A DNA stretch of 64,000 nucleotides, from assembly GCF_022846255.1 (NCBI RefSeq), contig NZ_AP025682.1; one strand, written 5' to 3'. Position numbers and translations under genes: made by a program. The DNA comes from Escherichia coli. GTDB taxonomy: Bacteria > Pseudomonadota > Gammaproteobacteria > Enterobacterales > Enterobacteriaceae. Under the pieces are notes generated by a model. The model ran no database searches. It saw only the letters and a list, made by a program, of their open reading frames with translations, and had not been told where the DNA came from. Within the stretch, counting starts at the first letter, position 1, and every line of letters starts with the position of its first letter. Positions 4,257 to 48,149 of this stretch are shown piece by piece.

Positions 4257-4994
4257 ATGAGTTTTCAATTTTGCAGGCGGAAGTTTTATTTCCTCCTGGC
4301 GCTGGCCTTACCGGGCTACGCCGCCGTCCATCCCGTGCAACATAGCGCGCGGGAACAAGTCAACGCCCAGGTGCTGAATGCCGCCAGCCAGCAGATTGAA
4401 TCGCTAGCGCAGCAGCGGCAGTGGCATGACTATCGCTACACCTTTAAGGTCTACATTCCCTCGCAGATTTCGACTGCCGCGCCCTGCGCTACGGCCCCCG
4501 GCGTCACGCTGACTTCGCCTGCGGAAATCGCTCTCAACCGGATGAACTTCACCGTCAGTTGCCCGCAAAGCTGGCAGATGAACGTCGCGGTGCGCCCGGA
4601 TGTTCTGGTACCGGTGGTGATGGCAAAGTCACTGGTTGCCCGCGATACGCCGCTCACGGCAAATGATGTGGAGCTGAAGCCCTACAACGTCAGCGCCCAG
4701 CGTCGCGATGTGTTGATGGAGCTTGATGACGCGATTGGTTTCAGCAGTAAACACGCGTTGCAGCCGGGCAGGCCAATCACCAAAGAAGAACTGATATCTC
4801 CGGTGCTGGTCGAGCGCGATCAACCGGTGATGATTGTTTACCAGAGCGCGGGGATCAGCGCCTCGCTGCCCGGCGTGGCGCTGAAAAATGGTCGTAAGGG
4901 CGAGATGGTGAAAGTGCGTAACGCCAGCAGCCAGCGGGTCATCAGCGCGATGGTGGCAGAAAGCGGCGTGGTGACGACGGTAAGCGCGGAGTAA
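4257..4994 (+). CDS. lfgA: Flagellar P-ring assembly chaperone FlgA
   Basis: ORF from 4236 (GTG) with likely ATG start at 4257; signal-peptide-like N-terminus; divergent from flgB as in flg loci; C-terminal SAF-like region. Confidence 0.75.
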   Translation: MSFQFCRRKFYFLLALALPGYAAVHPVQHSAREQVNAQVLNAASQQIESLAQQRQWHDYRYTFKVYIPSQISTAAPCATAPGVTLTSPAEIALNRMNFTVSCPQSWQMNVAVRPDVLVPVVMAKSLVARDTPLTANDVELKPYNVSAQRRDVLMELDDAIGFSSKHALQPGRPITKEELISPVLVERDQPVMIVYQSAGISASLPGVALKNGRKGEMVKVRNASSQRVISAMVAESGVVTTVSAE

Positions 4995-5074
4995 TTTGCG
5001 CAGGCGATTAAAGTTTTGCCGCCTGTTAACCGCTTTACTGGAGTAACCCACCTAAATACCGAGACGAGGTTGCG

Positions 5075-5353
5075 ATGAAAATCACCCCGACTATGCCAGG
5101 CAATCGCCCGACAGCCACAACGGCTGGCTCCAGCCAGCCACGCAAAAGCACGGCGACCACCACCACGACGCAGAGCGCAGACGACATTACCCAGGCGGGA
5201 TTGCAGTCTGCCCAGCAAACGCTGAACGACCAGCAAGAGAGCGATATCGACAGCGATAAAGTGGCGCAAATGCAGGCGATGCTGGCGTCCGGCAGCCTGC
5301 AAGTGGACACCGAACAGTTAGCCAGCGACATGCTGAGTTTTTTCCAGAACTAA
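5075..5353 (+). CDS. lfgM: Anti-sigma-28 factor FlgM
   Basis: 92 aa; C-terminal DSDKVAQMQAMLASGSLQVDTEQLASDML is the FlgM sigma-28 binding region. Confidence 0.8.
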   Translation: MKITPTMPGNRPTATTAGSSQPRKSTATTTTTQSADDITQAGLQSAQQTLNDQQESDIDSDKVAQMQAMLASGSLQVDTEQLASDMLSFFQN

Positions 5354-5365
5354 GAGGCCGATGAA

Positions 5366-5794
5366 GTGAGTATCCGGTTACAACAGGTGAAGGCGTTGTT
5401 GCAGGGCATTCGTGACGACGACGCACTGTACGATTCCCTGCGCGAACTTCTCCAGCGTCAGCGGATCTGCATGATTCGCCGCGCCAGCGAAGATCTGCTG
5501 GCGGTAAACGACGAGATAACGCAGCACTATGAACAGTTGCATGGGCATAGCCATCAGCGGCACAGCCTGCTGAAAATGCTTAATGTCAGTGTAAATCGTG
5601 ACGGTCTGGCGCAGGTTTTTGCCTGGCTTCCGGCTGTGCAAAAAGCAGCAGCACAACAGTTGTGGCAACGCCTTGAGCAAAAAGCGGAACGCTGCAAAGC
5701 CTACAACGACAAAAACGGCGAGCTGTTGATTCGCCAGTATGAATTTATTCAGTCTTTTTTAGGCGGCGAAACAGATTTTCTGTACCAGGAATAA
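5366..5794 (+). CDS. lfgN: Flagellar export chaperone FlgN (GTG start)
   Basis: 142 aa helical protein directly after flgM; size and position typical of FlgN. Confidence 0.65.
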   Translation: MSIRLQQVKALLQGIRDDDALYDSLRELLQRQRICMIRRASEDLLAVNDEITQHYEQLHGHSHQRHSLLKMLNVSVNRDGLAQVFAWLPAVQKAAAQQLWQRLEQKAERCKAYNDKNGELLIRQYEFIQSFLGGETDFLYQE

Positions 5795-5882
5795 CGACAA
5801 TTCCTTCCGCCATCGCGGAAACGGATTTTCCGCCTGATTCTCAATCCCTTGTTTTTGATTACAAAAATTCCCGGCACGCTTA

Positions 5883-36836: not shown

Positions 36837-37313
36837 TTAATTCAGTTCCCAGAACCAGATTTCCTTGCAGCTAAAATAGCAATGTGAATGACATATAGCA
36901 CCTGTGGTAGAAGGCTCAATAAGATCTATATGACCGCCACCGTAACCCGTAATTTTCCAGAAAAAGACCACTCCTCTTTTATTACTGGTGTCTGTTTTAA
37001 ATTTTTCTGAGTCACACCAGATAACTGGTCTTCCAAAAACATCAGCTCGGGAAAGCTGATCTGCCAGTAATTTCGCACCGGTTTCTATTTTCTTCCCTTT
37101 CCAGTCACCACTTTTGATCGTCAGTCGCCCGTTAAAGCTGACGCCTGATTTAATCAGCGCCAGACTCATACGTGTGGCACAGGTATTTACATAACCAGCA
37201 TTTTGCTGTTGCAGTGCTTCATAGTTATAACCCACTTCACTGTACAAAACATCACCATCAATCTGAACTGATGAGTAATGGTTTTTTTTAAGTGTGAAAA
37301 ATGAAGGTTTCAT
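36837..37313 (-). CDS. Tae4-like type VI amidase effector (papain-like Cys/His peptidoglycan amidase)
   Basis: AGYVNTCATRMSLAL (Cys) and GGGHIDLIEP (His) resemble the Tae4 catalytic motifs as I recall them; 158 aa, no signal peptide. Confidence 0.55.
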   Translation of the reverse strand: MKPSFFTLKKNHYSSVQIDGDVLYSEVGYNYEALQQQNAGYVNTCATRMSLALIKSGVSFNGRLTIKSGDWKGKKIETGAKLLADQLSRADVFGRPVIWCDSEKFKTDTSNKRGVVFFWKITGYGGGHIDLIEPSTTGAICHSHCYFSCKEIWFWELN

Positions 37314-38005
37314 TTATTATTTCCTTTATCACAGGAGTGTTTACTTAGTGCCTCAATAATAATATTTGCAGCCCGTTCATTCAGTTTATCTGACGTTTTT
37401 TTTCTGAAATACCAGTAAATAATCTCATCCAGTGTAACTGTTTTAATCGTTTTATAATCGCACCATGTTTTTCTTTCCGTGGCATCTTCTATACCCAAAA
37501 GATAGATTTTCGCATTAAGCCTATCCTGCCTGTTATCTGACTGCCAGAAGCGGAAAAAATCATCTCCGTTCAGATCGAACGCGCCAGAGGTCAGGTGTGA
37601 AACAGATGAATGCCGGGGAGATTTTTTTTCCGGTGATGCCATATCCGGGCAGGGAAACAGCCTGACCATCGCTTGTTCAATCAGAGTTGAAGCTCGCATA
37701 TTCATATCGTTAACCGACTGCTGATTAAGATATGTCAGTACCGATGAATAAAGTTCTATTTCATTAATCTTATTATATCCACACCAGGTTTTACTTTCTG
37801 TCGCATCACTCACACCAAGGACATACATCAGAACATTTTCTTTTTCCTGTGACGTTCCACGAGCATAAAATGACAAAAATTCCTGCGCACTGAGATTAAT
37901 ATAATCGGGGTCAATAGTTCCTGTGTTTTTTCTGATATCAGCAAAAACATTTCCTGACATGGCATATAACAAAAAAATAATAAAAAAACGCGTATATTGT
38001 TGCAT
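37310..38005 (-). CDS. Secreted tandem-repeat protein, candidate immunity protein (two ~100-aa repeats each with paired Cys)
   Basis: Signal peptide; internal duplication (VLGVSDATESKTWCGYNKI... / LLGIEDATERKTWCDYKTI...). Confidence 0.5.
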   Translation of the reverse strand: MQQYTRFFIIFLLYAMSGNVFADIRKNTGTIDPDYINLSAQEFLSFYARGTSQEKENVLMYVLGVSDATESKTWCGYNKINEIELYSSVLTYLNQQSVNDMNMRASTLIEQAMVRLFPCPDMASPEKKSPRHSSVSHLTSGAFDLNGDDFFRFWQSDNRQDRLNAKIYLLGIEDATERKTWCDYKTIKTVTLDEIIYWYFRKKTSDKLNERAANIIIEALSKHSCDKGNNK

Positions 38006-38251: not shown

Positions 38252-41200
38252 TCACAGCGCTCGCTCCGGGCAGGCGAAGCGTTGTAATAGTCCGCGATCC
38301 ACTGGGTCAAAATCCCGTCCGGCGGTGATTTCCAGTATCACCCGCCGCCCGTCAAAGCTGTACTCCACCTGCTGTGTTCCCCGTACCGCCGTTTCTTGCG
38401 CTTTTCCCGCATCCAGCAGGTGAAACAGCGCCCACGGTCCATTAGTCAGCAGCGTCGAGGTGTCCTGGCGGATGCGCGGGCTGGCGGTTATTTCCGCCAT
38501 TGAGCCGTTGCGCGGACCCGGCCAGTTCACTTTCAGCGGCCTGACCGGGCCGTGAGCGTAACGCAGTACCTGGCCGTCAATGTCAATCACCAGTTCGGTG
38601 ATGGCCGGGTCCATATCCACGACGCGGACCTGCATCGCCCATGAGAACTTTTTCCCTCCGTCGCCGTTAAAAAACACGCTGCGGATCTGTTTCGCCTCCT
38701 GAAACGGCGTCAGGTCTGGACCCTGTAAGGTCATGTTGCCTTCGGTCGGTTTGTAGCGCCACGGGTTGCTGGCGGTATCCGCCAGTGGGGCCAGTTGCTT
38801 CGTCCAGAAGGCATCCAGCACGCCGCCGCTGGCAAAGATACGGTTAAAATCGTCCGCGCTGACCTCCTGCGGGCTGTCGGTGAAGGGGTAGCGCCCGTCG
38901 ATGGCGTCGCGGCACTCATCACCGATCACCGCCTCCATCTGCGCGTTCAGCACTTCACCGGTGCCGGCGTTGATTTTTCGCGTTCCCTGCTGCGTGAGAT
39001 CCAGCAGAATATTTTTCAGCGGCGCGGGCAGTTTTGCCGCCTCCAGTTGCAGTTTATCCGCCGCAGAAATGCGCCCCGGCAGAGTGCTCGCAGCCAGCGC
39101 ACTGTCGGCAATGGTGAGCTGGGTGTAGTACTCATTGAGCATCGTCAGCAGCGAATTTAATTGCGGCACGCCGCCGCCCTGCCCGCTGTCCGTCTGCCCG
39201 GAAACCACTTCCCGCAGGGCGGCGAAACGGTCATCCACCAGTGATTTTTCCAGCCGCTCTTCCGGGTGAATGTCCTGCAACAGCTTCGCCGTCTGCACCG
39301 CTTTTCCCGCATTGCCGGAGAGCCGGTCCTGCGCGCGCTGGGCCATCTGCTTTTGTCTGGCCTGCGCATTCAGCGGCGGCACCAGCGTGGTCTGCTCCAC
39401 CACCGCTTTACTCAGGCGCATCAGCGGGGAATCCGGCGAGGCCAGAGTACGCAGCACCTGAAGGTCATACGCTAGTCCAGGGCTACCGTCCTCCCCGGCG
39501 CTGTTGATGCTGTGAATGCTTGCCAGAAAATCCTGCCATCGGCGAGCATATTCAGCCAGGTACAGACGACGTACCTCACGGGTAACCGGGAGTTCCTGCC
39601 CCGGCAACTGGCTCATCACAATATCAGTCGTTTTTTTTTGCGCACTTTCCCGGCCCATCACCCAGGCGTCGTCCGCTGATGCGGCGGCGACAAACTCCGA
39701 CAGCCGTTTGTCGAACAGTTCCCGGTAGCCTTCGCGGGTGAAGATGCCGGGCACGCCCCTGTCCAGCGGCGCGCCATCCGTGCGGACAAAAACTGTTCCC
39801 GCATCCGCGCCCACAGCGCGAACCAGCGAAAACTCCTGCGGTGCTTCGCTCTCCATGGAAGCCAGGGCTCGAGTGTAGATACGCTCAGTGCTGGTATGGC
39901 CGTCAAGGAAGGCCCGCGCCTGGCGGATCAGCCCCTCATCTTTTTCCCAGGGCGAATGCACCACGCGGCTGCCGTCAAACAGGGCGTCAATATGCTCCAG
40001 CACGGCTGCGCGACCGCCAAACTCCGCTACGCTGTCGCGGTTGTCCAGATCGTTCAGCACCCAGGCGTGGATCTCCGCCGCGTTGTATTTGTCCTCGTGG
40101 TCCTTATCGAGGTTCAGCAGCAGATAAACATGCAGGGCGTCATAGGCGGCTTTGCTGTCCTGACGCGCAATCGCATCTGAAAGCACGTATTCCATTCGTT
40201 TCACCAGCGGAGGGAGCAGTAGCTGGTCCAGCAGGCGGTCATACAGGGATGCGACACTCTCCATCACCGGCGGGACGCTGTAAAGACCATAACGCCAGGC
40301 CAGCGGCGGCGAGTCCGGGTCCAGCCCCGGCCAGGCAGAGAGCGCCCGCGCCTGGTTCAGCAGGGCCGGAACAGGCTGCATAGCAGGTTTTCCGGTATAG
40401 GCTTTGACATCACCATCCAGTTGGGTCGTCCGGCTGGCGATTTCATTCAGATAACCGCTGTTACCCTGCTGGCTACCCTGCATTCCCTGCCACAACCAGA
40501 AAGCCAGCGCCAATACCAGCAGATGCCCGCCGGTACGCAGCAGGCGATAACGCCAGGCCCATTGAAGATTCGGCTCCACCAGGTGCGCTTCGCGGAAGAT
40601 AAACTGCGTCAGTAGATCGTGCAGGAAATAGCTGCGGTTGCCGTCCGGCAGGGTATGGGATGGGGAATCCGCCTTCCCTTTGATCGCCCGGACAAAACGC
40701 TGCCAGATGCCCGTCTGATCGGCCACCGCGTCTGCCTGCGCCTGCGCGGCACTGGTGAAAAATACGCCGCGCAGGGTGTTGTTAAGCTGGGTAGCATCAA
40801 ATTTTGAATCGAGGAAAATCTGTTCAATAGCTTCCAGCAGCGGCGCACCCAGCGCGGCAAATTCACGCGGGAAGCGGTAGAGCCGCTGACGGCTTTTAAG
40901 GTCATATTCTTCCTGCAACCGGGTATCCAGCCCCTGATCCAGCCGCTGTGTCAGGTTTGCCAGTTCCCGGCCACAGAGCGCATGCAGCGACTGCGGATCG
41001 CTGGCGTGACGCCTGCGGCTGTAAGGCAGGGTGAAGCCCCAGACCTGGGCTCGCAGGTGACTGGTCAACCCACGGAAATACTCCGTAAAGCCCGGCAGCA
41101 GATCCATCTTGGTGACAACCAGATAGACCGGAAAACGAATGCCCAGCGTCTCCCGCAGTTCCGCCAGCCGCGCACGCAGAGCTGCACAGGCAGCCAGCCG

Positions 41201-42118
41201 TTCCGCCGGGGACTGCGCGGTCAGATCCGCCACGTTCAGCGTCAGGATCACGCCGTTGAGCGGTGCGCCGGGGCGGTGTTTACGCAGCAGTCCCAGAAAC
41301 CCCTGCCACTCCCCGGCGTTGCGCTGGGTCGCGCTGATTTCGCCACCGTCATCGTGGCGAGCATAGCGCCCGGCGGTGTCAATAAGCACTGCTTCGTTGG
41401 TAAACCACCAGTCGCAGTGCAGCGTGCCGCCGCCCGGCACGGTGAGAATATGCGCGGTTTGCTCCATCTGCTCCGCCAGCGGAAACTGTAGCCCGGTGTT
41501 AAGCAGCGCGGTGGTTTTACCATCGCCGGGGCTGCCGATAACCATAAACCACGGCAGCTCGTACAGAAAACGCTTTCCTTCCAGGACTTTTCGCCAGCCA
41601 GGAAGATCCACACGCAGTTGTTTCAGTTGCCGGATGGCGCGGTTGACAATATGGCTGACGGTACGCAGGTCGGCTTTAATTTCCCCCTCCACCGGTACGT
41701 CTTCCCCACGCGGATGCAGGAAACGGCGCAGCAGTTGTTCATCCAGACGCAGCGCCCGCCACAGCCGGTACAGGCCATACAGCGCATAAGTCAGCAGGAT
41801 CAGACCGATAAGCGTCAGACGCAGCCACAGCGGCGCAAATGGATGAACATCACCGAGGGACAGCAGGGGTGAAACAAAACCGATGACCAGGCACAGAACC
41901 GTCACGCCAATGATGCTCATCGACCAGTTAACCAGCCACAGTGCGAGGAACATCAGTAACAGAACGATGGTGACTACCCGACTTCCCACAGACGCGAGCG
42001 GATGCACGGTGTCAAACGCCACCAGCGGCCCGATAAACCAGACCAGCAGCGCCAGTACCGCCACGCCGACAACAGCCAGCGCGCGGCGGGAAAACAGCAG
42101 ACTGAGAAATTTTTGCAT
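38252..42118 (-). CDS. tssM: T6SS membrane complex protein TssM (IcmF family)
   Basis: 1288 aa; three N-terminal TM helices, Walker A GSPGDGKTT, IcmF-like periplasmic region. Confidence 0.9.
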   Translation of the reverse strand: MQKFLSLLFSRRALAVVGVAVLALLVWFIGPLVAFDTVHPLASVGSRVVTIVLLLMFLALWLVNWSMSIIGVTVLCLVIGFVSPLLSLGDVHPFAPLWLRLTLIGLILLTYALYGLYRLWRALRLDEQLLRRFLHPRGEDVPVEGEIKADLRTVSHIVNRAIRQLKQLRVDLPGWRKVLEGKRFLYELPWFMVIGSPGDGKTTALLNTGLQFPLAEQMEQTAHILTVPGGGTLHCDWWFTNEAVLIDTAGRYARHDDGGEISATQRNAGEWQGFLGLLRKHRPGAPLNGVILTLNVADLTAQSPAERLAACAALRARLAELRETLGIRFPVYLVVTKMDLLPGFTEYFRGLTSHLRAQVWGFTLPYSRRRHASDPQSLHALCGRELANLTQRLDQGLDTRLQEEYDLKSRQRLYRFPREFAALGAPLLEAIEQIFLDSKFDATQLNNTLRGVFFTSAAQAQADAVADQTGIWQRFVRAIKGKADSPSHTLPDGNRSYFLHDLLTQFIFREAHLVEPNLQWAWRYRLLRTGGHLLVLALAFWLWQGMQGSQQGNSGYLNEIASRTTQLDGDVKAYTGKPAMQPVPALLNQARALSAWPGLDPDSPPLAWRYGLYSVPPVMESVASLYDRLLDQLLLPPLVKRMEYVLSDAIARQDSKAAYDALHVYLLLNLDKDHEDKYNAAEIHAWVLNDLDNRDSVAEFGGRAAVLEHIDALFDGSRVVHSPWEKDEGLIRQARAFLDGHTSTERIYTRALASMESEAPQEFSLVRAVGADAGTVFVRTDGAPLDRGVPGIFTREGYRELFDKRLSEFVAAASADDAWVMGRESAQKKTTDIVMSQLPGQELPVTREVRRLYLAEYARRWQDFLASIHSINSAGEDGSPGLAYDLQVLRTLASPDSPLMRLSKAVVEQTTLVPPLNAQARQKQMAQRAQDRLSGNAGKAVQTAKLLQDIHPEERLEKSLVDDRFAALREVVSGQTDSGQGGGVPQLNSLLTMLNEYYTQLTIADSALAASTLPGRISAADKLQLEAAKLPAPLKNILLDLTQQGTRKINAGTGEVLNAQMEAVIGDECRDAIDGRYPFTDSPQEVSADDFNRIFASGGVLDAFWTKQLAPLADTASNPWRYKPTEGNMTLQGPDLTPFQEAKQIRSVFFNGDGGKKFSWAMQVRVVDMDPAITELVIDIDGQVLRYAHGPVRPLKVNWPGPRNGSMAEITASPRIRQDTSTLLTNGPWALFHLLDAGKAQETAVRGTQQVEYSFDGRRVILEITAGRDFDPVDRGLLQRFACPERAL

Positions 42119-42445
42119 TATTGTTCAGAACTCCACATTGTAATCATCAACAATAAAAGGCCACAAGCTGAAAATGTTTTCCCGATTCAGCACAAAAAAA
42201 TAGATGGCGATCCGAAACATCACTAAACCTGAAAAATAAAATTTCGCAGCATCATTTTATTTACATCATCACGCAACAACGTTGTCATTATAAGGTTTAT
42301 GCTCAATATTTTAATTTATATACAAAATCATTCGAGTTGCATCAAGGCGGCAAGCGAGAGGATCCCGAATCATTTATTCCGGTAAGTGACTCGGGTGAAC
42401 GAGTGCAGTCAACGCAGAGGCAACCTGAAGGATAAGGTGTATACA

Positions 42446-42901
42446 TCAAAATTCTCTGGATAGAATAATATAGCCATTGAATCTTACGGAACACTCATTT
42501 TCATTAATAAGGCCGGATGCAATAAAAACATCTTTCCCTCTGTCATTGTTAATATAGGTATATTTTGCCACAATAGACTTGGCATGATTTTCATAGTAGC
42601 TATCAAAATACGATTTTTCATCTAACATTGCCTTCTTATTTCTGGCTTTGTCCTTCTCATAATCAATCTTAGCCAGAGACTCTGCATAAAACTTAGACAC
42701 AGGAGAAACATCAAGAACTTCTACCCTTGTTTTATCTCTTAAAATAGTAGAAGAATTTATATTCAAATCACTTTTCATTGCATCAAATAACGACAACTCT
42801 ATTGAGGCTCCAACCGTAGCGCAACCATCATTTTGTGCATATGAAATTGCAGGTATGCCAGCTAACAGGCAGATTATTACCTTGAACATATTAGTCCTCA
42901 A
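42446..42901 (-). CDS. Secreted protein, candidate immunity protein for the L,D-transpeptidase-like effector
   Basis: Signal peptide (MFKVIICLLAGIPAISYA); overlaps the upstream effector gene. Confidence 0.5.
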   Translation of the reverse strand: MRTNMFKVIICLLAGIPAISYAQNDGCATVGASIELSLFDAMKSDLNINSSTILRDKTRVEVLDVSPVSKFYAESLAKIDYEKDKARNKKAMLDEKSYFDSYYENHAKSIVAKYTYINNDRGKDVFIASGLINENECSVRFNGYIILSREF

Positions 42902-43259
42902 CCACTAATATTTTATCAGTACTGGCAGCAATAACCTTGCGATAAGGTAAATCCAGAATTATACAGCCATCAGAGGCTTCTCCTGGATGGGCTGAACTCT
43001 CTCCGTGTATCATGAAACCGTCACGCCCGCACATTTGATTTTCGGGGTAAGGCGTGAGCCTCATCGTCCATGCTCTTGTTCTGGCATGAAAAAATGCAAG
43101 TCCAATTGTATATGTACCTCTTGGCAATGGTCCCTTATCTCTTACACACTCATTAACAGAGTCATCTTTAAAACCCGGTCTGCCAGAATATCTGGCATTG
43201 AACTGATAGCTACCATTTAAATAAAATGAACGTGCATTAATTTTGTATACCCAAGGCAT
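42891..43259 (-). CDS. YkuD/L,D-transpeptidase-fold protein, Tlde1-like candidate T6SS effector
   Basis: FMIHGESSAHPGEASDGCIIL matches the YkuD catalytic H...SxGC motif; between tssL and tssM. Confidence 0.6.
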   Translation of the reverse strand: MPWVYKINARSFYLNGSYQFNARYSGRPGFKDDSVNECVRDKGPLPRGTYTIGLAFFHARTRAWTMRLTPYPENQMCGRDGFMIHGESSAHPGEASDGCIILDLPYRKVIAASTDKILVVED

Positions 43260-43350
43260 TACACAATCTCCTTTTTGTTAAAAAATAATAGTCAGATCAG
43301 AACACCATATTTTATTGTTAGTTTTCTGACCTAACCATAGTCATATTAAT

Positions 43351-44667
43351 TCACTCCACCACCAGAATTTCCACCCGACGGTTCTGCGCCCGTCCGGTTT
43401 TAGTGCGGTTATCGGTCACCGGTACGGTATCTCCTTTCCCGACAACCCGGATCCGGCGGGCCGGAATACCATCGGACGTCAGCAGTGAAGCCACTTCCGC
43501 CGCCCGTTTTTCCGACAATACCTGGTTGGACGGGAATTCAGCGGAGTGGATCGGCTGGCTGTCCGTGTGGCCGGTCACCGTCACCGCGCCCCCCACACGC
43601 GCAATCTCACGCGCGGCCTTGTCAATCACCGGGCGCAGCGCATCATTCACGGTTTTCTGCCCCGGTATAAACATCGTATCGCCACGAAAAATTACACGGC
43701 TGTGATGGTCATCTTCCTCCACCGTCAGCAGGCCACGGGCGATTTCGTTCGCCAGCAGGATTTTCAACCGCAGTTTATGCACCGGAACGGGTGGCGGAGG
43801 AAGATTTTTACCAATGGCGTCGATACGCTGTTGTACGGTTTCGGTGGCGAGGTTCATCCGGTGGCTGTAAAGGCCAAACAGCGTCAGCATCACCAGCAGG
43901 GCGATTCCGGCGCTCAGCCAGACCGGCACCCGGCGCATCCGCCGCATTCGCCCACTGACGGCACCGGCAAAACCCGGCGAGAGCGTCGGCGTGATCGGAT
44001 CGCGACGCTGGACCAGTTGAGTCAGCAGTTGCTGGCGGATATCGTCCAGTTGTTTACGCCCGTCAGGCCGTACACTGTAGCGGCCTTCAAAACCCAGTCC
44101 CAGAATGTGGTAAATGATTTCCAGTACATCGCTGTGCTCCTGGAAGCTGGCGGCCAGACGCCCGATTATCTGAAACAGCTTGATGCCGCCTTCACTTTCG
44201 CCATGAAAAGTCACCAGCAGGCTCTTCCCGGCCCAGACACCGCGTCGCCCCCAGACGGTGTTGTTGGCAGCTTCATCCAGCGCCGTGCACACGCAGTAAC
44301 GTACCGCCAGCACATGTTCGCGGCGCAGGTTTGCCTGGTCGCACAGCGTCTGATACCGGCGGACTTCACGCTCCAGTAGGGCGCGATAATGTTCGACAAA
44401 ACCAGGGGAAAGTTCACGGGGCATTTGCGCCAGCGCGCATAACAGAGGGCTGGCCGCCGCCAGAAGAGGATTCACAGCAGCAGTGATCTCAGCCAAGCGG
44501 AGCTTCAAATCTGGCCCGTCTTCAACCACCATTTTTATATCTTCCCTGCGAAGGCTGTCCTGGACGAGCGTATCGTAACCGTCATTATCAGGCGACCTTG
44601 TTCCCCTCATTGAAGGCTGTAATTGCAGGGTATTCACCGCAGGTTGCGTCAGAATATCGTCGGTCAT
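43351..44667 (-). CDS. tssL: T6SS membrane complex protein TssL (DotU) with C-terminal OmpA-like peptidoglycan-binding domain
   Basis: 438 aa; DotU-like N-terminal domain, TM helix, OmpA-like C-terminus (TDSQP...NRRVEI). Confidence 0.85.
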   Translation of the reverse strand: MTDDILTQPAVNTLQLQPSMRGTRSPDNDGYDTLVQDSLRREDIKMVVEDGPDLKLRLAEITAAVNPLLAAASPLLCALAQMPRELSPGFVEHYRALLEREVRRYQTLCDQANLRREHVLAVRYCVCTALDEAANNTVWGRRGVWAGKSLLVTFHGESEGGIKLFQIIGRLAASFQEHSDVLEIIYHILGLGFEGRYSVRPDGRKQLDDIRQQLLTQLVQRRDPITPTLSPGFAGAVSGRMRRMRRVPVWLSAGIALLVMLTLFGLYSHRMNLATETVQQRIDAIGKNLPPPPVPVHKLRLKILLANEIARGLLTVEEDDHHSRVIFRGDTMFIPGQKTVNDALRPVIDKAAREIARVGGAVTVTGHTDSQPIHSAEFPSNQVLSEKRAAEVASLLTSDGIPARRIRVVGKGDTVPVTDNRTKTGRAQNRRVEILVVE

Positions 44668-46611: not shown

Positions 46612-47103
46612 TTAAATTTCTTTGTTAGCTTTGAAATCGTAACCTGCCGTGATAGTGCCGCCGCTGCCGCCCTGCTGGTTCTGCACCACGTATTCCTGCT
46701 TCACGGTGCTGAAAGATAGTTCGACTCTCTCGCGGGAGGCGATCTCACCCTCCTTACTACCACTGGGGGAAACAACAGCCACAATCAGGTCAGTGAAGGT
46801 ATATTTGAGGTATTCCAGCGGATTGCCGCCTGCTTTGCGCATGACAAGGATGGACTTCGGAATATGCTTACCAGAGGCGCAGTATTTGAACAGGTTCGGG
46901 CTAGCGCGATCGATGTAATGTTCAAACTCCAGGTTAGTCACGGAGACTTTGCCGGATCCCAGACCGCTACCTGCGTGCATGGTGGACTCCTGGTGGATAT
47001 TCCAGCGCCAGCTCAGCACCTCAATTTCATTTTTATGTTTGTCATCCATTGACTCGCCGTCAATGCCGTCAATTTTCAGAAAAATGTCATAAGCCATTTT
47101 CAT
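46612..47103 (-). CDS. hcp: T6SS tube protein Hcp (TssD)
   Basis: 163 aa; N-terminus MAYDIFLKIDGIDGES... and overall Hcp pattern. Confidence 0.9.
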   Translation of the reverse strand: MKMAYDIFLKIDGIDGESMDDKHKNEIEVLSWRWNIHQESTMHAGSGLGSGKVSVTNLEFEHYIDRASPNLFKYCASGKHIPKSILVMRKAGGNPLEYLKYTFTDLIVAVVSPSGSKEGEIASRERVELSFSTVKQEYVVQNQQGGSGGTITAGYDFKANKEI

Positions 47104-47276: not shown

Positions 47277-47729
47277 CTATTTACATGTCACAGATACCGA
47301 TGACTCTCCTGGTACCCGCTGCCCCGGCAAAGAAGATGCCTGGCACTGTGTCGCCAATGCAGGGACCGGTTGTGATAACCAAACCTGTCCATGGTTATAA
47401 ATACAGGAAACCCAGTAACGTTCACTATTCTGATTACTGGCCATTGTGGTATCCCATATTTGCCTGGTTTCACCCTTTATTGTCTCTGTCTCTGGTTTTA
47501 GATCCACCCGATTTTCAGGTTTTCCCTGCGACATCCCTACCCCGTCCAACCACAGACGGGGTTCATAGCGGGAAGATCTCTGCCACGATGCAGATATATC
47601 TGGCTCCAGTACTGTTGTTGAGGATTTTATATTGATAAACACGGGGCAACTGACTTCCCACGCAGTAACAAATTGTGAATAAAACAACATAAAACCCAAC
47701 AACAGAGAAAAAATAAAACGTGTCCCCAT
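47277..47729 (-). CDS. Secreted Cys-containing protein, candidate immunity protein
   Basis: Signal peptide (MGTRFIFSLLLGFMLFYSQFVTA); follows a small effector-like ORF. Confidence 0.45.
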   Translation of the reverse strand: MGTRFIFSLLLGFMLFYSQFVTAWEVSCPVFINIKSSTTVLEPDISASWQRSSRYEPRLWLDGVGMSQGKPENRVDLKPETETIKGETRQIWDTTMASNQNSERYWVSCIYNHGQVWLSQPVPALATQCQASSLPGQRVPGESSVSVTCK

Positions 47730-47741
47730 TGAATCTATCCT

Positions 47742-48149
47742 CTACTCAATAATATAAAAAGCTTCCGCATTATTACTGGCATCAGGATATGTTCCATCGC
47801 TGCGCATTCCACCTTTTCGGGAAATAGGGCGTGCAGAGACTTTCGTGGTTTTACCTGTCCACTGGTCCATAACATAAATATACTGACTATCCTGTTCCAG
47901 ATAGAAAGCGGCATGCTTATGCTCATTCTGCCTCGAGGGATACTTTCCGTTAACAAAAGTGGCAATTGCTGTTCCTCTGGGGATCGATTTATCCCCAAAA
48001 ACCTTTCGCCCCTGCTTCCAGGCTCCAGTATTCCCCACATGTGCATATACCTGAACTAAGAACACACATTCCTTTCTGTCTCCTGCCCCCGCCATTCCCA
48101 CCATGTCAGTGCCCTGCAATGAATCTACCAGTCCATAAACATATGCCAT
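47742..48149 (-). CDS. Small putative T6SS effector (unassigned family) between tssC and hcp
   Basis: 135 aa, no signal peptide, single Cys (ECVFLV) and His cluster (NEHKH); sits where SPI-6-type clusters carry tae/tai cassettes. Confidence 0.4.
   Translation of the reverse strand: MAYVYGLVDSLQGTDMVGMAGAGDRKECVFLVQVYAHVGNTGAWKQGRKVFGDKSIPRGTAIATFVNGKYPSRQNEHKHAAFYLEQDSQYIYVMDQWTGKTTKVSARPISRKGGMRSDGTYPDASNNAEAFYIIE

Follow-up and report, generated by a model that had tools for sequence, protein, structure and literature searches.

A 64,000-nucleotide stretch of Escherichia coli DNA from contig NZ_AP025682.1, referred to here as the window, carries two small adjacent genes between tssL and tssM of a type VI secretion system (T6SS) cluster. 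These genes very probably encode a T6SS effector-immunity module of the published Tlde1 family, in its capless subfamily Tlde1b/Tldi1b (Tae6/Tai6). The effector gene (42891–43259, minus strand) encodes a 122-aa, capless Tlde1b-like protein with a Tlde1 domain and without a signal peptide, and its product is an exact match to WP_244331572.1. The immunity gene (42446–42889, minus strand) encodes a SciR/Tldi1b-like protein of 147 aa when translated from the ATG, which is predicted to be periplasmic and exactly matches WP_244331571.1. An earlier interpretation made from the DNA letters, the sequence-only reading, had located two open reading frames (ORFs) at this position between tssL and tssM. 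Both are present, and their strand is corrected to minus. The pair is already known: RefSeq labels the effector, and the family was published in 2020–2022. Those reports described three subfamilies, the presence in Escherichia, the link to T6SS and to orphan hcp genes, and an orphan immunity gene in Salmonella.

Family and predicted fold of the effector

The effector is a 13.8 kDa protein with a pI of 8.5. Pfam assigned residues 23–104 to Tlde1_dom PF10908, formerly DUF2778 (E=2.3e-12, 47.8 bits), and returned a weak match to YkuD PF03734 (E=0.012, 16.6 bits). No NCBIfam model matched the effector. A word-indexed search identified 93 homologs at E≤1e-3, nearly all of which carry a precomputed PF10908 assignment. 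Most of the 93 are 121–122 aa long, and they include proteins from Citrobacter, Salmonella, Cronobacter, Gibbsiella, Nissabacter, Pantoea, Erwinia, and Rahnella. The homologs from Burkholderiaceae are 40–48% identical to the effector. An exhaustive hidden Markov model search reached 3307 cluster representatives at E≤1e-3, and the exhaustive profile search found the domain at the C terminus of a few large proteins of 1287 and 1815 aa. Rhs-DUF2778 fusions were described by Sibinelli-Sousa et al. 2020 (preprint 10.1101/2020.02.18.954545). Sequences very similar to the effector, for example WP_138370965.1, occur in the published Tlde1-family alignment (PMC9638812 supplement).

The AlphaFold model of the effector has a mean pLDDT of 95 and a pTM of 0.88. 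When the model was compared to the PDB with Foldseek, all 44 matches at E≤1e-3 were L,D-transpeptidases, L,D-carboxypeptidases, or Tlde1a. The best 50 matches were all L,D-transpeptidases or L,D-carboxypeptidases, including LdtMt2, Pgp2, and Bd1075, and the highest query TM-score belonged to Salmonella Tlde1a (7UO8, TMq 0.68, E=3e-4). The effector is thus predicted to adopt the YkuD-like L,D-transpeptidase fold. The Pfam E-value, the homolog counts, and the pLDDT place membership in the Tlde1 family far beyond chance. The N terminus has no hydrophobic stretch (maximum Kyte-Doolittle mean over 11 residues, 0.16), and therefore no signal peptide is called. The sequence-only reading had proposed a 122-aa peptidoglycan effector of the YkuD fold that lacks a signal peptide. 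The length and the missing signal peptide hold, and Pfam, the predicted fold, and the profile-profile alignment described below all support the fold assignment.

Alignment of the putative active site with Tlde1a

Residue conservation was counted in an alignment of 35 effector homologs. G98, C99, R79, and R107 are invariant (35/35), H85 and S96 are each found in 34/35, and H58 and R67 are nearly invariant. Position 97 is occupied by Asp in 23 sequences, Asn in 6, Glu in 2, and His in 2; acidic residues and Asn together account for 31/35. C38 and C77 are both present in 17 homologs and both absent from the remaining 18. This joint presence or loss is consistent with a disulfide that the enterobacterial branch has conserved.

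The effector family profile was aligned by hhalign with an alignment of 24 Tlde1a homologs. The Tlde1a sequence was taken from Salmonella locus L007 and matches every residue number in PMC9638812. The two families aligned with a probability of 90% (E=1.6e-6). Effector H85 and C99 pair with the catalytic H121 and C131 of Tlde1a, R79 and G98 pair with R115 and G130 of the D-amino-acid pocket, and C38 and C77 pair with the disulfide partners C37 and C111. R67 and S96 pair with R99 and S128, and D97 stands opposite H129, where the residue differs. Tlde1a toxicity is removed by H121A and C131A substitutions (preprint 10.1101/2020.02.18.954545). Homolog conservation and the alignment to Tlde1a delimit an active-site segment, FMIHGESSAHPGEASDGCIIL, that covers effector residues 82–102 (42954–43016, minus strand). 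The proposed catalytic His85 (43005–43007) and Cys99 (42963–42965), both on the minus strand, are part of an H-x10-S-D-G-C motif within it. The YkuD H...SxGC signature that the sequence-only reading saw in this segment is borne out, as is its comparison to Salmonella Tlde1, in that the catalytic His and Cys of the two families align. A 32-column gap in the hhalign alignment lies opposite Tlde1a residues ~59–92, the position of the capping subdomain.

Two other alignments were set aside. The hhalign comparison of the family profile with a single Tlde1a sequence had a probability of 49.5% and mis-paired the IPRG motif, and a simple global pairwise alignment of the effector with Tlde1a gave the wrong pairing. 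Only the comparison with the 24-sequence Tlde1a alignment is credible.

Tlde1a (STM14_0336; PDB 7UMA, 7UO3, 7UO8) has an L,D-transpeptidase core fold and no signal peptide, and it is encoded in an i3-type T6SS cluster together with a periplasmic immunity partner. The effector resembles it in each of these respects, the fold and the location of the partner being predictions. PF10908 membership was measured for the effector and is taken from preprint 10.1101/2020.02.18.954545 for Tlde1a, for which no Pfam match of its own was recorded. The effector is shorter (122 aa vs 173 aa), and the two proteins share ~16% identity in the structural alignment. The Tlde1a cap consists of ~32 residues (beta6-7, alpha1, and eta2, with a C66-C86 disulfide and W90) and has no counterpart in the effector. 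The gene arrangements also differ. The immunity gene of the pair is downstream of the effector in the tssL–tssM slot, whereas the Tldi1a gene (STM14_0335) is upstream of Tlde1a at a locus downstream of tssM-tagF.

The canonical YkuD enzymes LdtMt2, YcbB, Csd6, and Pgp2 have the catalytic beta-sandwich and the His/Cys dyad in common with the effector. The H...SHGC of the YkuD protein 4LPQ, the best PDB sequence match, aligns with the H...SDGC of the effector. However, the canonical enzymes have extra domains and are exported for housekeeping roles, whereas the effector has no signal peptide and would be T6SS cargo. The His-Cys spacing of the effector (H-x10-SDGC) is shorter than the canonical H-x16-19-[ST]HGC (motif from PMC9638812). 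With an E-value of 0.012 against PF03734 and no export signal, the effector does not fall into the canonical YkuD L,D-transpeptidase class.

The proposed immunity partner

The partner begins with MFKVIICLLAGIPAISYA, followed by QN. This N terminus combines a Lys with a hydrophobic core of 12 residues (Kyte-Doolittle 2.70) and has Ser/Ala at positions -3/-1. These are the features of a textbook Sec signal peptide, predicted to span residues 1–18 (42836–42889, minus strand) with cleavage before Gln19. The AlphaFold model of the partner has pLDDT values <50 at residues 1–25. The partner is predicted to fold as a small alpha+beta domain of the cystatin/NTF2-like kind, and the structural matches were of that kind only. 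The partner has no Pfam match. Kinship to DUF2195/Tldi1a was not found by BLASTP, which returned a trivial 39-residue match (E=0.013). A total of 631 homologs were detected at E≤1e-3, and the 120 that were listed are mostly Salmonella proteins with 72–81% identity that are named "SciR" or "Shiga toxin A subunit". The partner is 73–76% identical to Salmonella SciR and 73–79% identical to the Salmonella proteins of the Tlde1b/Tldi1b system. C23 and C133 are invariant in the partner homologs.

NCBI and UniRef records of the partner family (homologs P0094–P0213) commonly bear the name 'Shiga toxin A subunit' or 'Shiga-like toxin A subunit SciR'. The Shiga-toxin name is unsupported by score, sequence, or fold, and the mislabel could mislead pathogen-typing pipelines.

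The sequence-only reading had described the partner as a 151-aa signal-peptide protein whose gene overlaps the effector gene. The signal peptide stands as a prediction, and the length and the overlap do not. The 151-aa product requires an alternative TTG start at 42901 that gives an 11-nt overlap with the effector gene and is probably unused. The ATG at 42889 is preceded by a GAGGA Shine-Dalgarno sequence (42895–42899) 5 nt upstream, RefSeq uses the ATG in near-identical genomes, and most homologs of the immunity protein are 147 aa long with the equivalent Met start. Because these three observations agree, the product is probably the 147-aa protein. The immunity ATG is located 1 nt past the effector TAA, so that the two genes would abut without overlap.

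Salmonella orthologs and subfamily assignment

A Salmonella ortholog of the effector with 87% identity occupies the same slot, in the order tssL, a 122-aa Tlde1_dom gene, a 143-aa partner gene, and tssM. In the S. Typhimurium-like locus L007, the tssL–tssM slot contains a Rap1a-like gene and SciR alone, without an effector, and Tldi1a (DUF2195) and Tlde1a are found after tssM-tagF. Tlde1 has been placed in variable region 2, downstream of tssM (PMC10469887). The SciR that follows the Rap1a gene between tssL and tssM in L007 is 75% identical to the partner. An orphan Tai6STM (STM14_0332) was reported to adjoin a homolog of Rap1a and to share its genomic position with the orthologous S. Fresno Tai6 (preprint 10.1101/2020.02.18.954545). 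We infer that SciR is this published orphan Tai6STM/STM14_0332 based on the layout and orthology rather than on the locus tag. The S. enterica Fresno pair consists of Tae6SF (WP_058115706.1) and Tai6SF (Sibinelli-Sousa et al. 2020, preprint 10.1101/2020.02.18.954545).

The tssL–tssM slot in Salmonella therefore holds either a Tlde1b ortholog or, in S. Typhimurium-like strains, orphan SciR only. The sequence-only reading had taken this slot to be the location of Tlde1/Tldi1 in clusters of the SPI-6 (Salmonella pathogenicity island 6) type; this is incorrect given that Tlde1a/Tldi1a lie downstream of tssM-tagF. Its claim of Tlde1 kinship survives at the level of the family, through PF10908, and fails for the Tlde1a type, since the effector is capless and the immunity protein is unrelated to Tldi1a.

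The families were renamed Tlde1a, Tlde1b, and Tlde1c, and the capping insert is exclusive to Tlde1a (PMC9638812). The pair lacks the features of Tlde1a: it has no cap insert and no DUF2195 immunity protein, and it is found at another location. It has those of Tlde1b (Tae6), namely a capless effector and a partner with a predicted Sec signal and no domain that is orthologous to SciR in the same slot. Tae6 immunity proteins were reported to have a Sec signal and no annotated domain, and the Tae6 family to be abundant in Enterobacteriaceae, including Escherichia (preprint 10.1101/2020.02.18.954545). The taxonomic spread of the effector fits the Tae6 list of Citrobacter, Cronobacter, Gibbsiella, Nissabacter, Rahnella, Pantoea, Erwinia, and Escherichia. 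The 122-aa single-domain effector, the domain-less immunity protein with a Sec signal, and the links to T6SS and orphan hcp genes are the same in Tlde1b/Tldi1b as here. Nothing substantive differs, and the pair is the E. coli ortholog. The capless effector, the SciR-like partner, and the Salmonella ortholog in the same slot thus fit the assignment of the pair as an E. coli Tlde1b/Tldi1b (Tae6/Tai6) module.

Other arrangements were encountered among the homologs. In Salmonella locus L003 (7412–8001), the Tlde1b gene directly follows hcp, and no tssJ, tssK, or tssL was called between them. This layout suggests a deletion variant of SPI-6. The Burkholderiaceae branch, at 40–48% identity and without the Cys38/Cys77 pair, may be the Tlde1c subfamily. 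A Paraburkholderia homolog with 45% identity (locus L010, 5001–5719) has no T6SS gene within 5 kb, and the gene downstream of it encodes an 81-aa protein in which neither a signal peptide nor a membrane segment is obvious.

Linkage to T6SS and hcp

A homologous signal-peptide partner is encoded directly downstream of the effector in 5/5 enterobacterial contexts, which are the window, Salmonella, and three hcp cassettes. These orphan three-gene cassettes, from Gibbsiella, Escherichia sp. ESNIH1, and Erwinia, encode an Hcp (163 aa), a Tlde1b (121–122 aa), and an immunity protein (144–146 aa). They are located at ~4510–5810 in each of loci L008, L009, and L011, far from any T6SS cluster, and the hcp stop abuts the effector ATG. 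The orphan hcp association was also seen previously, and Hcp cargo was proposed (preprint 10.1101/2020.02.18.954545). The pair in the window has the typical signature of acquired cargo, with a GC content of 42% in the effector gene and 34% in the immunity gene compared to 59–61% in tssL and tssM.

In two homologs, P0054 (204 aa, Hcp-plus-Tlde1) and P0049, the effector domain is attached to N-terminal fragments of Hcp. They were rejected as evolved-Hcp fusions since only N-terminal fragments of Hcp are carried. A frameshift or recombination involving abutting hcp and effector genes is a likelier origin for these proteins than true fusion, and cassettes of the above kind are their probable source.

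Proposed mechanism and alternative explanations

The orientation and spacing of the genes suggest that the pair would be co-transcribed with tssJKL and tssM. The effector would stay in the producer cytoplasm, be loaded onto the T6SS, and be fired into a Gram-negative neighbour. It would most likely be loaded as cargo in the lumen of the Hcp hexamer, because of its 13.8-kDa size and the orphan hcp-effector-immunity cassettes found elsewhere. By analogy to Tlde1a, the YkuD-type site would attack peptidoglycan peptide stems in the target periplasm, with Cys99 as the nucleophile and His85 as the base. The enzyme may remove D-Ala4 from tetrapeptide stems (L,D-carboxypeptidase activity), exchange it for another D-amino acid, or both. 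If it acts like Tlde1a, cross-link substrates would run short, leading to division defects and lysis. The 147-aa partner would be exported by Sec, with a probable Cys23-Cys133 disulfide, and would bind and block effector arriving from sister cells. This immunity role is proposed because of the signal peptide, the strict gene pairing, and the orphan copies that are kept in Salmonella. Within the Tlde1 family, toxicity, neutralization by the immunity protein, T6SS delivery, and L,D-carboxypeptidase/exchange activity have been published for Tlde1a only.

Several points count against the Tlde1b/Tldi1b assignment and the mechanism drawn from Tlde1a. We found no published enzymology or structure of any Tlde1b member in the searchable literature. 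The choice of Tlde1b over Tlde1c is based on immunity orthology and synteny rather than on placement in a tree. The effector has S96-D97-G98-C99 instead of the full canonical [S/T]-H-G-C motif, and its H-x10-SDGC makes the His-Cys loop 4 residues longer than in the H-x6-SHGC of Tlde1a. SDGC is a subfamily-wide variation and ASDGC relatives are included in the published Tlde1 alignment, so membership is not excluded by this difference. Direct sequence searches of the PDB missed Tlde1a: phmmer with the effector did not reach 7UMA, and the 35-sequence family profile also missed it, with the YkuD protein 4LPQ as the best match (E=0.21). Homology is therefore demonstrated through Pfam, the fold search, and the profile-profile alignment. 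The capping subdomain is missing from the effector, which may therefore differ from Tlde1a in its bond specificity and in the relative weight of carboxypeptidase and transpeptidase activity. The loss of the cap and the His-to-Asp change thus leave room for a different specificity. The loading route of Tlde1a itself is undefined (bioRxiv 10.1101/2024.12.20.629533). Similarity to the cassette Hcps was considered as a pointer to the carrier used by the window cluster and was ruled out, since the Hcp of this cluster (encoded at 46612–47097) is 23% identical to the cassette Hcps over 86 residues. The Hcps are unlike, and the carrier here is therefore only inferred.

One alternative is a Tlde1-family pair with another chemistry. 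The effector could be a plain L,D-carboxypeptidase or a 3-3 L,D-endopeptidase, or it could act on lipoprotein-peptidoglycan links, in each case without exchange. The cap has been tied to exchange activity, and a more general transpeptidase activity was predicted for the capless subfamilies (PMC9638812). The capping subdomain is absent here, the His-Cys loop has 4 additional residues, and 31/35 homologs have Asp, Asn, or Glu at position 97, against 2/35 with His. Yet Arg79 and Gly98, which match R115 and G130 of Tlde1a, are invariant, and conservation of R115/G130 suggests that exchange activity is common to Tlde1 orthologs (PMC9638812). The data also favour no particular alternative bond, and we regard a different chemistry as unlikely, with an appreciable minority chance. 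A more speculative proposal, to which we give a modest chance, is that the capless Tlde1b enzymes, with SDGC and the longer loop, hit another bond or substrate and that the immunity proteins, as a new family of inhibitors with a cystatin fold, plug the cleft of the catalytic cysteine in the way cystatins block papain. Tlde1b is a reasonable subject for asking what the loss of the cap and the replacement of His by Asp do to L,D-carboxypeptidase as opposed to exchange activity.

The remaining alternatives deny the pair its role as a functional effector and immunity protein. The location between the membrane-complex genes tssL, with its OmpA-like peptidoglycan-binding domain, and tssM, together with the predicted YkuD fold, would suit an L,D-transpeptidase-like enzyme with a housekeeping role, or an assembly factor of the T6SS, that remodels the peptidoglycan of the producer locally so that the membrane complex can pass. 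However, a protein without a signal peptide cannot reach the producer periplasm by Sec, the slot is variable and holds unrelated genes in most E. coli T6SS-1 clusters with matching flanks (the pair is in 14/5426 complete genomes), and the pair also accompanies orphan hcp genes at sites remote from any T6SS cluster. The retention of the partner alone as an orphan in Salmonella and the low GC content, a mark of cargo, also argue against a producer-side enzyme, which is most improbable. The rarity of the pair in E. coli (14/5426 genomes), the IS1-mediated loss of the whole island in many genomes, and the dispersed repeat in the 327-bp gap before tssM could instead indicate a decaying remnant that is non-functional or unexpressed in this strain. 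Decay is very unlikely in view of the two intact ORFs with good ribosome-binding sites, the retention of every conserved residue, the 99.2–99.5% identity of the locus across the 14 genomes, and the intact T6SS core genes that adjoin it. Finally, the partner would be a toxin subunit rather than an immunity protein if the Shiga toxin A subunit name on many NCBI and UniRef records were correct, and NCBIfam does report weak matches to the N terminus of the Stx2 A subunit (E=0.0025, 17 bits). The curated NCBIfam cut-offs are 600–736 bits, and the partner-family profile retrieved no Shiga toxin and nothing significant from the PDB. The partner is 147 aa long compared to ~319 aa for the Stx A models, and its predicted cystatin/NTF2-like fold matched no ribosome-inactivating protein. 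A toxin subunit is scarcely credible. A Tlde1b effector with its Tldi1b immunity protein is the reading that we retain.

Distribution of the pair in E. coli

The pair is present in 14 of 5426 complete E. coli genomes, and the region in the window is 99.2–99.5% identical to theirs. In near-identical genomes, the island is T6SS-1, located beside tRNA-Asp between yafV and dnaQ, and RefSeq names the effector 'tlde1 domain-containing protein' and the partner 'hypothetical protein'. About 100 complete E. coli genomes with ~92% identical flanks have a different two-gene insert in the tssL–tssM gap. The one insert inspected, that of M23314 (locus L012, 1719–2689, corresponding to 42119–43350 of the window), encodes a 224-aa protein and a 95-aa DUF2645 protein. 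The 224-aa protein has no Pfam or NCBIfam match. These two genes may be an uncharacterised effector-immunity pair. The Tlde1b/Tldi1b pair documents the tssL–tssM gap of E. coli T6SS-1 as a swappable cargo slot.

At least two E. coli genomes (H44 and H45) that lack the whole T6SS-1 island keep a 49-bp scrap of the immunity gene with 100% identity (window 42611–42659; locus L013, 3001–3049). Genomes with the scrap may be many more, since there are 100-odd near-identical partial matches beyond H44 and H45. In the one genome that was inspected, the scrap is beside an IS1A copy, between yafV and tRNA-Asp. It resembles a scar left behind when IS1 mediated the deletion of an island that carried Tlde1b.

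Other effector-immunity pairs in the cluster

A second low-GC (~38–40%) peptidoglycan effector-immunity pair is located just downstream of tssM at 36837–38005 (minus strand). Its members are a 158-aa amidase of the Tae4 family and a protein of 231 aa that carries two Rap1a immunity domains; in strain E04, the annotation splits the Rap1a part into two genes. Like the Tlde1b/Tldi1b pair, the Tae4/Rap1a pair combines a small cytoplasmic enzyme with a periplasmic immunity protein in a low-GC insert between T6SS core genes. Tae4 is a papain-like D,L-endopeptidase (literature quoted in preprint 10.1101/2020.02.18.954545), and its fold and target bond differ from those of the effector. Between tssC and hcp, at 47277–48149 (minus strand), the window also encodes a 135-aa protein of the BPSL0067 family and a 150-aa member of the STY0301 family. 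These genes are probably a third small effector-immunity pair of the cluster.

Organization of the locus

The effector and immunity genes are flanked by T6SS core genes on the same strand. The upstream flank is tssL (43351–44667, minus strand), the long form with DotU and OmpA-like domains, identified from its ORF and the RefSeq annotation of a 99.5%-identical locus. The downstream flank is tssM (38252–42118, minus strand), which encodes the IcmF-like membrane subunit and was identified from its ORF and the RefSeq annotation. The tssL stop is separated from the effector ATG by an AT-rich spacer of 91 bp with 26% GC (43260–43350, minus strand). The effector has an AAGGAG Shine-Dalgarno sequence at 43268–43273, 8 nt 5' of the ATG. 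A promoter and terminator scan of 41900–43600 gave counts near the shuffled expectation (7 vs 4.1 and 3 vs 1.5, respectively).

The gap of 327 bp between the immunity stop and the tssM ATG (42119–42445) contains a dispersed intergenic repeat, which we presume to resemble an ERIC/IRU element. Of the 5426 E. coli genomes searched with blastn, 5424 contain this repeat, the median being 6 copies each at 60–90% identity. In the Salmonella ortholog locus, the corresponding gap measures only 33 bp.

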